Shown piece by piece: positions 8,422 to 10,655 of a stretch of 64,000 nucleotides of DNA (the stretch's first letter is position 1; every line of letters begins with the position of its first letter). Position numbers and translations under genes: made by a program. Below the pieces are notes generated by a model. That model searched no databases. It worked only from the letters and a program-made list of their open reading frames with translations, and had not been told where the DNA came from. The DNA lies in IMG/VR virus record IMGVR_UViG_3300010882_000011, positions 1-64,000 of that record; one strand, given 5' to 3'. The DNA comes from a virus. Its lineage: Duplodnaviria > Heunggongvirae > Uroviricota > Caudoviricetes.

Positions 8422-10143
8422 CTATTTCGTTTCAGGAAGAGATTTCTTTCCGAATACATCGCTAATCATACCAGCAATTGGCATAACTTTATCAAGGATG
8501 TTTCCTGCAGTTTGTGCCCAAAGTGCACCACCATGCGTAGTATCCATAACTTGAACATTACCGAAATTCAATGATTTCATAGCGATAGCCTGTTGATCAG
8601 CAATATGGTTGAAAGTTCCCTCTGTAACCATCTTATACTGAACAGCTAATTGCGGATTTTGTTCTCCTGCTTGTACCATCGCGGCAAAACCTTCTGCCTG
8701 TGCTATTGCAGATGCTCTTTCTCCCTCAGCAGCAGCCAAACCTTTCAAGCGAATAACTTCTGCTTCCGCTTGACCTCTTGCCAAAATACCTTCGCCTTCT
8801 CCTTTACCCTGCAAAGAAGCTCCTTCCCCTATACCTTTACCTTCCAATACAGCAGCTTCTGAAACAGCCTGAGCGTTGAACACTCTAGCTCTCTTTTCAC
8901 CTTCTGCATTAGCGGCTTTAGCGTTAGCTTCACCTTGTGCGGTAATTTTTGCGGTATTAGCATTAGCTTCAGCTTTCTTTTCAAGTTCAAGCTGATATGC
9001 TTCTGCTTTTAATAATGCTTCTTTCTTTGCAATGTCGGCAGGTACAATTTTATCGGCAGTTAACGCCGCTTCGTTACGTTGAGCACGAGCTTCTTCTGCT
9101 ATTTTACGAGCAAGTTCCTTCTCCTGTTCAACTTTTGCCTCTGCCTGCACAACAGATACACGCGCTTCTTCACGTTTAGCTTCGGCTTTAACAACCTCTA
9201 CTTGTGCGAGTTCTCTGTTTTTTTCAACCTGTGCCAATGCTTGAACATTTGCAGTTTCTGCACGCTGCATAGCTTCTGCTCTGGTAATTTTTAATTCCGC
9301 ATCTTTATCAACAACAGTTTGTTCAGCAGCAATTTCACCAATACGACCTTCGGATTCTGCTTTCGCTACACTAATATCACGGTCTCTCACTTGCTCAGCA
9401 ACTTGAGAATCCTTTTGTGAGTTTGCAGTAGCAACGGCAACGTCCTTTAATTTATTAGTTTCGGCAACTGTAGAATCCTGAATTTTTCTTTGCTCGGCAA
9501 TATCAATAGCTCCTCTTTTATCAGCAGTAGCTACGTCAACGTTCGCCTGGTTAATGGCAGCAGCTTTATCACGCTGTCCCCAAGCAACAATCATGCCAGC
9601 CTCATCCTTAATGTCAGTAAAGTTAACATTGATAAGTTTCAAACCTATCTTGTTCAACTCCGTGTTAACCAACATAGTAGCTTCGGATATCAATTTATCA
9701 CGTTGCGAAATCAATTCCGCCACATCCATATTAGCAACAATTGCTCTTAACTGACCAAACACAATATCCTGAACAAGATTACTCAAAGTCTTCTCATTCA
9801 TATTCAGAATTCTTTCTGCAGCGTTTTGCATAATATTCGGCTCAGTAGATACACCAGCCGTTACTATAGCAGGAACTGCAACACGGATATTTTGTTTAGA
9901 AATGGCATCTGTCAAGTTACAAGTAATCTGGAATGGTTTCAAATCAATAAATGTATATCCCTGGATGATAGGCCAAATGAAGGCGGCACCACCATGAACA
10001 CATTTTGCGGATTTGTTTTTGCCAGTTTTACCATACACAACAAGAATCTTGTCAGATGGGCATTTCTTGAATCTTGATAAGATTGCAAAAATGGTTATTA
10101 AACCAAGTAGTGCAGCTGCACCAATAATGATAAGTAAATTCAT
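8422..10143 (-). CDS. SPFH/band-7 (flotillin-like) membrane protein
   Basis: N-terminal TM then band-7 core, followed by a very long Ala/Glu/Lys/Gln-rich coiled-coil (AEAK...EKKAEANA...) typical of flotillin/YqiK. Confidence 0.65.
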   Translation of the reverse strand: MNLLIIIGAAALLGLITIFAILSRFKKCPSDKILVVYGKTGKNKSAKCVHGGAAFIWPIIQGYTFIDLKPFQITCNLTDAISKQNIRVAVPAIVTAGVSTEPNIMQNAAERILNMNEKTLSNLVQDIVFGQLRAIVANMDVAELISQRDKLISEATMLVNTELNKIGLKLINVNFTDIKDEAGMIVAWGQRDKAAAINQANVDVATADKRGAIDIAEQRKIQDSTVAETNKLKDVAVATANSQKDSQVAEQVRDRDISVAKAESEGRIGEIAAEQTVVDKDAELKITRAEAMQRAETANVQALAQVEKNRELAQVEVVKAEAKREEARVSVVQAEAKVEQEKELARKIAEEARAQRNEAALTADKIVPADIAKKEALLKAEAYQLELEKKAEANANTAKITAQGEANAKAANAEGEKRARVFNAQAVSEAAVLEGKGIGEGASLQGKGEGEGILARGQAEAEVIRLKGLAAAEGERASAIAQAEGFAAMVQAGEQNPQLAVQYKMVTEGTFNHIADQQAIAMKSLNFGNVQVMDTTHGGALWAQTAGNILDKVMPIAGMISDVFGKKSLPETK

Positions 10144-10148
10144 CTTCT

Positions 10149-10655
10149 TTAACTGTTTTTCTTAATAAATTTAAGGTCGTTTCTCTTTCCAGAGACGGTG
10201 ATTTTTTCACCAGTTCGTAGTTTTACTTCTTCGTTGTCGGAAGTGAAGGGTAACGTTTTCTGTGTTCCTTCAAGGGTTAACGTAACTTCACCGCATTGGA
10301 TTCCTTCATCATAGAAGTAAACCTCTCCAGGTGCGTTAGTTATTTCCTGTTCATAATCAATTTCTTGTTTGAGTGATTTATACACAAACCTATATAACCA
10401 TCCAAGTATAACCACGAAGGCTATACCGACTGCTACTGCTATTGCCCATACGGCAACAGTAGATGCAGTCCCGAATAATGTTAAGGTTAATGTTACTCCA
10501 ATAACGAAGTGGATTATTCCTTTCAAGGAGAAAATATCTCCAAATCCAAAGTCGTGATCGAAGTCTAAATCAAAATCTCCTAAGAAAAATGACATGAAAA
10601 CCTGTAGCACCAGGATAATGCAACAGGCAATTAAGGCAATTGTGTACCAAGCCAT
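10149..10655 (-). CDS. NfeD-like membrane protein (partner of the SPFH protein)
   Basis: Several N-terminal TM helices plus a C-terminal soluble beta-rich domain; 6 nt downstream of the SPFH gene, the classic NfeD-SPFH arrangement. Confidence 0.5.
   Translation of the reverse strand: MAWYTIALIACCIILVLQVFMSFFLGDFDLDFDHDFGFGDIFSLKGIIHFVIGVTLTLTLFGTASTVAVWAIAVAVGIAFVVILGWLYRFVYKSLKQEIDYEQEITNAPGEVYFYDEGIQCGEVTLTLEGTQKTLPFTSDNEEVKLRTGEKITVSGKRNDLKFIKKNS

Follow-up and report, generated by a model that had tools for sequence, protein, structure and literature searches.

A 64,000-nucleotide (nt) stretch of viral DNA (positions 1 to 64,000 of IMG/VR record IMGVR_UViG_3300010882_000011, hereafter the window) contains two adjacent genes that encode a flotillin-family protein of 573 amino acids (aa) and a 168-aa membrane protein related to NfeD. 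A preliminary description of this DNA had placed a 573-aa open reading frame (ORF) at 8422..10143 and a second ORF at 10149..10655, and the ORF listing agrees with these coordinates exactly. It had also described a flotillin followed, after 6 nt, by a protein with multiple transmembrane (TM) helices, but that order holds only in plus-strand coordinates; both ORFs lie on the minus strand, the multi-TM gene comes first, and the spacer measures 5 nt. The locus is laid out as follows.

11339..10659, minus strand: metallophosphatase gene, ending 3 nt ahead of the NfeD-like gene
10655..10149, minus strand: NfeD-like gene (short, YuaF-type), 168 aa, first gene of the pair, ending in TAA
10144..10148, minus strand: intergenic spacer of 5 nt (AGAAG on the coding strand), from the NfeD-like stop to the flotillin ATG
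10143..8422, minus strand: flotillin-family (SPFH2-type) gene, 573 aa, second gene of the pair, ending in TAG
8343..8369, minus strand: terminator-like hairpin, a 10-bp stem followed by a T run (consensus scan; pattern match only)

The hairpin lies 53 nt past the TAG stop of the flotillin gene and ahead of a tRNA-Met gene (8162-8235), and the transcription unit probably ends there, before the tRNA. Given this hairpin and the tight minus-strand spacing, the pair closes a packed minus-strand gene array. In nfeD-flotillin operons, nfeD is normally the upstream gene, and the coding-strand order in the window, with the nfeD-like gene first and the flotillin gene second, is the canonical one; the correction of strand therefore strengthens the likeness to such operons. 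Neither ORF arises by chance, since homologues are numerous and the ratio of nonsynonymous to synonymous substitution rates (dN/dS) between phage copies is well under 1.

The 573-aa protein matches the Pfam Band_7 model (PF01145) over aa 29-209 with an E value of 4.1e-27 and a score of 95.8 bits, far above the gathering cutoff of 23.6, and its best relatives of solved structure are flotillin-1 and flotillin-2, in agreement with the band-7/flotillin-like protein proposed earlier and not with membership in an unrelated coiled-coil family. Three parts of the protein can be distinguished.

10078..10140, minus strand: N-terminal membrane anchor helix, aa 2-22 (AlphaFold; hydropathy 2.87; charge count)
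9517..10059, minus strand: SPFH/Band 7 domain, aa 29-209 (Pfam envelope; confident part of the AlphaFold model)
8644..9594, minus strand: long Ala/Glu/Lys-rich helical (coiled-coil) region, aa 184-500 (AlphaFold helices 184-495; composition)

The anchor helix is followed by a basic stretch, SRFKKC, and the composition of aa 185-500 (23% Ala, 13% Glu and 9% Lys) bears out the long Ala/Glu/Lys coiled coil that had been noticed in the sequence. The best matches in a phmmer search of the PDB were human flotillin-2 (E 2.9e-13) and flotillin-1 (E 2.8e-9), with weaker matches to an archaeal stomatin (9e-6) and to Escherichia coli QmcA (6e-4). In an AlphaFold model built on 35 sequences (mean predicted local distance difference test score, pLDDT, 68.7), the SPFH domain is predicted with confidence, and very long helices extend to about residue 495. 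The top Foldseek matches of this model are the flotillin-1/2 complexes 9bq2 and 9l3g (E ~1e-15); prohibitin (4.5e-12), stomatin, HflK/C, erlin, QmcA and the vault protein rank lower, the HflK/C chains (7vhq, 9cz2) at E ~1e-10 or weaker. Homologues of the protein, 5914 at E<=1e-10, are named flotillin by both NCBI and JGI. That the 573-aa protein is a member of the flotillin subfamily (SPFH2), closer to flotillins than to stomatin, prohibitin or HflK/C, is a solid conclusion.

The sole NCBIfam match of the protein, to FloT (NF058507), is confined to the N-terminal 290 residues and scores 107.9 bits against an equivalog cutoff of 700, and we therefore rejected its designation as a FloT orthologue and regard it as a homologue. 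The C-terminal Flot domain of Pfam (PF15975) was not found in it at E<=1. The closest relatives likewise lack this domain in their precomputed annotations, and it is present in remoter ones and in YqiK of E. coli, suggesting that the missing match reflects a divergent C-terminus and no failure of flotillin-superfamily membership.

The 168-aa protein returned nothing meaningful from Pfam, NCBIfam, PHROGs, PADLOC or the PDB (phmmer) when searched directly, nor from a tblastn search of 50,697 phage records, and the NfeD identity proposed for it found no direct expression in Pfam NfeD (PF01957), which the window protein itself does not match at E<=1. A word-indexed protein search recovered only 2 relatives; an exhaustive profile search recovered 220 cluster representatives of the partner family at E<=1e-3, most of them 155-195 aa long. 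We aligned 73 of these 220 representatives (alignment A2; alignment A3 is A2 minus its four locus-derived rows), and Pfam NfeD is matched by nine of the 73 aligned members, at best with E 2.7e-6. The single significant solved protein found in the PDB with the A2 profile was the soluble domain of Bacillus subtilis YuaF (2k14, E 3.5e-5), aligned over 72 residues that make up the whole C-terminal domain, and YbbJ was not found with this profile at E<=10. Comparison of A3 with YuaF by hhalign gave a probability of 89.8% (E 1.8e-6) over 66 columns with about 18% identity, whereas unrelated OB folds used as negative controls gave 3.5% (IF1) and 0.7% (CspA). In BFVD, a set of predicted viral structures, the top match, and the only one over the full length, was a 175-aa protein with the annotation “NfeD-like C-terminal domain-containing protein” (171 columns, E 7.9e-11).

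YuaF, which shares an operon with FloT, was described as a “lowly conserved NfeD homolog” (PMC2636767), and is called NfeD2 in Hinderhofer 2009 and Dempwolff 2016. Short NfeD proteins of this kind have ~140-175 aa, three N-terminal hydrophobic helices and a C-terminal five-stranded OB barrel (Hinderhofer 2009; PMC2636767), and the 168-aa protein has this architecture in its AlphaFold model (69 sequences, pLDDT 91.3), in which helices 3-24, 44-61 and 67-95 precede five strands within aa 104-166. The earlier description of multiple TM helices and a C-terminal beta-rich domain thus holds in both the model and the hydropathy scan.

10371..10649, minus strand: three predicted TM helices, aa 3-24, 44-61 and 67-95 (AlphaFold secondary structure; hydropathy scan)
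10527..10583, minus strand: acidic D-x-D-x-D loop between TM1 and TM2, aa 25-43 (alignments A2 and A3; charge count)
10158..10346, minus strand: C-terminal five-stranded beta-barrel (OB fold), aa 104-166 (AlphaFold model)

The TM1-TM2 loop (DFDLDFDHD) has 6 acidic residues and no basic ones; at least 90% conservation is seen for D29 and D31 in A2, and D31 is so in A3 as well. Because two membrane crossings separate them, the acidic loop and the OB domain are expected on the same side of the membrane, and the basic residues that follow the flotillin anchor and TM3 suggest that this side is the cytoplasm. Taken together, the YuaF profile match, the Pfam NfeD matches of the nine relatives, the OB-fold model, the BFVD annotation and the adjacency to a flotillin gene confirm indirectly that the 168-aa protein belongs, as a divergent member, to the short NfeD proteins of the YuaF type.

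The preliminary description had given E. coli YqiJ-YqiK as its example of such an operon, and this is not the closest analogue; B. subtilis yuaF-floT is nearer. We rejected a YqiJ-type assignment of the partner. The Pfam models YqiJ_N (PF21001) and YqiJ_OB (PF07290) are unmatched by the window protein at E<=1, and neither is matched by the 73 relatives (E<=0.01) or by four partner proteins scanned; E. coli YqiJ itself matches both. The hhalign probability of the partner family against E. coli YqiJ is 1.2%.

The nfeD-like gene and the flotillin gene form one conserved unit, of an operon type that is standard in Bacteroidota. When used as a single-sequence query against IMG/VR, the flotillin gave nothing; an alignment-based query identified 188 viral contigs with a flotillin relative, 80 of which (mostly 75-178 kb) were retrieved. 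In 80 of these 80 viral loci, a hidden Markov model (HMM) search placed an NfeD-like ORF 7-85 nt upstream on the same strand, and both genes were intact in all of them. A scan of bacteria with one genome per species yielded at least 595 genomes with a relative, nearly all of them Bacteroidota, with the best flotillin matches (45-46% identity) in metagenome-assembled genomes (MAGs) of Bacteroidales and Tannerella. The partner family lies directly upstream in 76 of 80 retrieved Bacteroidota genome loci (median gap 18 nt), and in two further loci of the 80 it overlaps the flotillin start. The canonical NfeD-SPFH arrangement that had been proposed for the window is borne out by its 5-nt spacer and by the same layout in these viral and bacterial loci.

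Large metagenomic contigs with flotillins 61%, 54% and 51% identical to that of the window all have a gene for a 162-170-aa protein immediately upstream. Among deposited phage genomes, only three contain a relative of the window flotillin. The human gut phage csAssE-Sib (GenBank OR575929, 151 kb) encodes, in its replication module, a “transmembrane protein” directly before a “flotillin family protein”, and the former is homologous to the window partner (28% identity, E 6e-12). The partner proteins of two bacterial MAG loci (L009, L010) have no Pfam match either, and the partners constitute an uncurated NfeD subfamily of Bacteroidota that current Pfam models miss and for which we found no characterization.

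Further loci extend the range of observed forms. Contigs of 114-178 kb (L006-L008 and L012-L016) with flotillins 51-54% identical to that of the window all carry the pair, and the flotillin of L006 (P0009) represents a cluster of 206 member sequences. In Vibrio phage KIT04 (Demerecviridae; L002), the gene for an 82-aa two-helix membrane protein (3680-3928) precedes and abuts a 473-aa flotillin-family gene; the small protein has an acidic TDLDD loop, is without an OB domain and is unmatched by the NfeD-family HMM, and it may represent a shortened counterpart of the partner. A 159,800-bp contig in the isolate genome assembly of Bacteroides faecichinchillae JCM 17102 (L097, NZ_BAKK01000007.1) encodes a full-length flotillin with 39% identity to the query. 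In size and identity it resembles the csAssE-Sib-like group; it may be a phage carried in the culture and would then give that group a host.

The identities of the two proteins to their relatives fall in step across lineages (flotillin/partner 61/51, 54/42, 43-46/38-41 and 36-39/24-34%). In a neighbor-joining tree, the window flotillin groups with that of a 115-kb relative (90% support) inside a clade of nine (92% bootstrap); those members with a known source come from contigs that are viral or large and phage-like. This clade is sister to flotillins of Bacteroidales/Dysgonomonadaceae, and the csAssE-Sib-like phages form a separate clade. These relationships show that the cassette derives from a host (Bacteroidota) operon, and the simplest reading is that phages took up this operon whole, either on two or more occasions or a single time in the remote past. 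The capture is old, because the window flotillin is only 43-46% identical to the nearest bacterial proteins. The host genus named in the preliminary description, Bacteroides, is supported by the tree and the genome scan at the level of phylum or order and not at that of genus.

Comparison of phage copies gave dN/dS values of 0.025-0.048 (flotillin) and 0.046-0.090 (partner), with dS at 0.16-1.0, and therefore both genes are kept by selection in phage genomes. The cassette, found in two or more deep phage lineages, is under strong purifying selection. These results bear on the idea that the pair is a functionless passenger, a piece of host DNA captured recently, for which its clear host derivation and the mixed auxiliary metabolic genes in its neighborhood could be cited. 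We consider this idea largely refuted and its probability very small, as the pair occurs in at least two deep clades and 188 IMG/VR contigs, both genes are undamaged in all 80 loci retrieved, dN/dS between phage copies lies at 0.025-0.09 over the dS range given, and the 43-46% identity to the nearest bacterial proteins points to an old capture. In the statements on identity and origin made so far, taken together, we have high confidence.

The window itself belongs to a phage, as the preliminary description had it. It contains a portal-like gene (phrog_6547, E 4.8e-13), a gene for a large phage-specific protein (phrog_1735, E 8e-203), four tRNA genes (Met, two Glu, Pro) and structural genes in which TGA is recoded, and its gene strands follow a two-arm organization. 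Searches of the nucleotide sequence of positions 1-25000, and of a 525-aa plus-arm ORF (47366-48943) by tblastn, found no related deposited phage. The closest named homologues are bacterial MAG proteins, which might indicate that bacterial chromosomal DNA had been mis-joined to, or mistaken for, phage DNA. This explanation is the most improbable of those weighed here: the same contig of ~170.14-170.24 kb was assembled independently in several samples, the window that contains the pair also contains a portal-like gene, PHROG families, tRNAs and TGA recoding, a 115-kb relative is syntenic and has the same neighbors around the pair, and the complete GenBank phage csAssE-Sib carries the pair in its replication module.

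The portal-like gene (~42100-44321, plus strand) is broken by in-frame TGA codons only, at 42789, 43071, 43347 and 43410. When TGA is read as sense, long-ORF coverage of the 28-64 kb part changes from 0.31-0.98 to 0.65-1.00 and reaches at least 0.88 in eight of nine 4-kb bins, and it does not change in 1-16 kb, the part that contains the pair. The structural/late plus-strand arm (28000-64000) thus appears to read TGA as a sense codon, and standard-code gene calls in this arm will come out fragmented. No TGA-suppressor tRNA is among the four tRNAs of the window. Gut phages are known in which structural and lysis genes are TGA-recoded (for instance PMC12386605), and recoding has been proposed to restrict the translation of late/lytic genes (Borges 2022, as cited in PMC11210395). 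The placement of the pair in an early block, made in the preliminary description, is plausible; it gains indirect support, and no more than that, from the location of the pair in the arm without recoding, across from the TGA-recoded structural genes.

Among characterized systems, the yuaF-floT (yuaG) operon of B. subtilis resembles the window pair in gene order, with nfeD first and flotillin second, and in tight linkage. YuaF and the partner are alike in size (~170 aa) and build (three hydrophobic helices and an OB domain), and in FloT as in the window flotillin, an N-terminal anchor precedes the SPFH domain and a long EA-rich coiled coil. The operons differ in that yuaF-floT is located on a Firmicute chromosome under sigmaW control, which does not apply here, whereas the window copy belongs to a phage of Gram-negative Bacteroidota. 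The native Bacteroidota operon (for example in the Bacteroidia MAG BNTV01000016 and in MAGs of Bacteroidales and Tannerella) is homologous in both genes, the flotillins being 43-46% and the partners 38-41% identical, and has the same order and spacing as in the window. It is the evident evolutionary source. It is chromosomal and presumably serves in housekeeping, whereas the phage copies fall in clades of their own. The csAssE-Sib phage, a large gut phage, and its ~150-kb IMG/VR relatives have the same cassette of two genes, with the flotillin already annotated as such. They form a separate clade (36-39% and 24-34% identity), which makes an independent or very old capture probable, and their pair differs in location, being in the replication module beside an acyl carrier protein (ACP) gene.

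More distant parallels share the logic of the system. E. coli yqiJ-yqiK likewise encodes first a multi-TM protein whose C-terminal domain is of the OB type and then a ~550-aa flotillin-family protein, but YqiK aligns with the window flotillin over the SPFH domain only (26% identity, E 7e-11), and only YqiK contains the Flot domain. The QmcA-YbbJ cage (8z5g) and the 44-mer dome of human flotillin-1/2 (9bq2, 9l3g) are structural precedents for SPFH membrane cages. QmcA is stomatin-like, YbbJ belongs to another NfeD subgroup, and we know of no NfeD partner of eukaryotic flotillins. SPFH/Band 7 ORFs of unknown role have been noted in the phages 44RR, Aeh1, RB43, PhiSH19 and Sajous1 (PMC1524935, PMC3220722, PMC10892097). 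These T4-like and Vi01-like ORFs are much smaller where a size is reported (263 aa in PhiSH19), have no flotillin annotation, and are not among the three phage records matched by the window flotillin; an NfeD partner is listed in none of those three papers.

The reading that we favor, with somewhat better than even confidence, is that this ~170-kb phage carries an intact host-type nfeD-flotillin cassette that acts as a scaffold or stabilizer of the host membrane. The pair would probably be transcribed as one unit from the non-recoded arm, ahead of the recoded structural genes. By analogy with solved SPFH complexes, which include closed membrane cages such as the HflK/C 24-mer, the 26 heterodimers of QmcA-YbbJ and the flotillin 44-mer (PMC12478178, PMC13086221), the flotillin would probably insert in the host inner membrane and oligomerize to a cage or dome. 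The NfeD partner would probably join this assembly, as YuaF (NfeD2) is recruited by FloT, with more than 96% colocalization and joint movement (PMC4928834), and as YbbJ is combined with QmcA in the structure 8z5g. The likely gain for the phage would be to supplement or replace the host flotillin system, such that the membrane is kept fluid, intact and organized during infection; alternatively, the assembly might organize a membrane-bound step while host gene expression fails. Flotillins of B. subtilis affect membrane fluidity, and floT is induced by sigmaW under membrane stress, phage infection included (PMC8581546). For the mechanistic part of this reading, drawn as it is from analogous systems, we put the chances of being right and of being wrong about equal.

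Several observations weigh against this reading. Deletion of nfeD2 in B. subtilis had no detectable phenotype and left FloT assemblies unaltered (PMC4928834), so that the need for an NfeD partner is unexplained even in the model organism. The NfeD assignment of the 168-aa protein is transitive, no curated NfeD model being matched directly by the protein. The confidence of the coiled coil in the flotillin monomer model is low (pLDDT 68.7 overall), as is expected of a subunit of a large oligomer, and the neighboring genes give no consistent functional clue across lineages.

Other roles for an assembly at the host membrane have been weighed against the scaffold. The assembly may alter the inner membrane such that DNA injection or membrane steps of a second phage are blocked, and such superinfection exclusion or inter-phage competition would suit a membrane-located product encoded in the non-late arm. 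The one further supporting observation found is that the SPFH-domain gene of Vi01-like phages adjoins an annotated superinfection exclusion gene (PMC3220722). Typical exclusion proteins, however, are small and phage-specific, whereas here there is a 573-aa conserved scaffold with host-like constraint, and the cassette is an ordinary Bacteroidota housekeeping operon not known to exclude phages. Neither protein is matched by a PADLOC defense model at E<=0.1, and a reading of the pair as a defense system was dropped for this lack of a match. We consider exclusion unlikely.

A cage might instead enclose a host protease such as FtsH, as in the HflK/C-FtsH or stomatin-STOPP systems, and thereby protect phage proteins or tune development. 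FtsH-HflK/C structures (7wi3, 9cz2, 9paw) are among the fold matches of the flotillin model and SPFH cages can enclose FtsH, QmcA interacts with FtsH (PMC2636767), and the ClpP-like protease of long NfeD proteins cleaves the stomatin partner (PMC13086221). The window protein, however, falls in the flotillin clade and not with HflK/C or stomatin (E ~1e-15 against ~1e-10 or weaker), its partner is a short NfeD without a protease domain, and colocalization of FloT with FtsH is rare and transient (PMC4928834), and we think protease control improbable. We give a similarly low chance to an infection-specific membrane platform, more than a spare copy of a host scaffold, that would hold or concentrate the machinery of phage replication, of assembly or of lipid and coenzyme A (CoA)-ACP-linked steps at a defined patch of membrane, or would shield against pore-forming abortive-infection effectors or a premature holin. 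If that were true, SPFH cages would be a recurrent viral takeover or counter-defense device in large Bacteroidota phages.

The cassette itself is a textbook SPFH2-NfeD operon and not a new kind of system, and it is already known that one phage copy is annotated as flotillin in GenBank and that short SPFH ORFs were long ago noted in T4-like and Vi01-like phages. In the searchable literature, we found no functional study of a phage flotillin, of a crAss-like phage flotillin or of csAssE-Sib, and no account of the full flotillin and NfeD pair as something conserved among large phages of Bacteroidota. It is still unclear what physiological role bacterial flotillins, and above all their NfeD partners, play. 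As the cassette has been kept intact under purifying selection in two deep lineages of large phages, both proteins together should confer a benefit within a short infection cycle, and the phage context could offer a cleaner setting in which to learn what an nfeD-flotillin pair does. The analysis also defines an uncurated short-NfeD subfamily that extends across Bacteroidota and draws attention to abundant gut phages of ~100-180 kb with membrane-organizing genes.

Other genes of the non-recoded arm, in addition to the metallophosphatase gene listed above, are the following.

563-1141, minus strand: glucosaminidase-domain protein, a possible cell-wall hydrolase (E 1.1e-16), in the non-recoded arm with metabolic genes
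1117-2247, minus strand: adenylosuccinate-synthetase homologue, matching a PHROG named for the 2-aminoadenine (PurZ) pathway
6036-6464 and 6457-7080, minus strand: pantetheine-phosphate adenylyltransferase (CoaD) gene and dephospho-CoA-kinase-like gene, consecutive, downstream of the pair
7631-8005 and 11327-11560, minus strand: two small ORFs that flank the pair, with signal-peptide-like N-termini ending in Cys, putative lipoproteins with no family match
11847-12326, minus strand: GNAT (FR47-like) acetyltransferase, 1.2 kb upstream of the pair, also present in the syntenic 115-kb relative (L004)

We dropped a firm PurZ identity for the adenylosuccinate-synthetase homologue, as it scores 33 bits against the NCBIfam PurZ cutoff of 300; it is below the cutoffs of the PurA models as well and may be either PurA-like or PurZ-like. 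The phage csAssE-Sib has a “dATP/dGTP diphosphohydrolase” gene near its flotillin gene. The CoaD gene scores 134 bits against an NCBIfam cutoff of 103, and the dephospho-CoA-kinase-like gene 55.5 against 65.6. In csAssE-Sib, the ACP gene is immediately upstream of the NfeD-like gene, and for Vi01-like phages both an SPFH protein and an ACP are listed; a link between CoA/ACP-dependent lipid metabolism and a membrane scaffold is possible. The B. subtilis yuaF-floT operon also carries a GNAT gene (yuaI), and the occurrence of a GNAT gene near both pairs may be coincidence.

A conserved third gene downstream of the flotillin was considered and dropped, as nothing is conserved at this position in the window or in other clades. 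ORFs of 50 aa with a C-terminal hydrophobic helix lie directly after the flotillin gene in csAssE-Sib (L001, 6619-6771) and in a Bacteroidia MAG (L009, 6577-6729); the two are not obviously similar to each other, and the window has no counterpart. A consistent functional neighbor was likewise dropped, as the pair adjoins a metallophosphatase gene here, an ACP gene in csAssE-Sib, and NADAR/NAD-salvage genes in a third clade. The NAD-salvage genes adjoin the pair in L006-L008 and include NAMPT in L006 and L007; in L006, genes for NAD synthase, an isochorismatase/nicotinamidase-like protein (matched weakly in L008 as well) and a NADAR protein are also near the pair.

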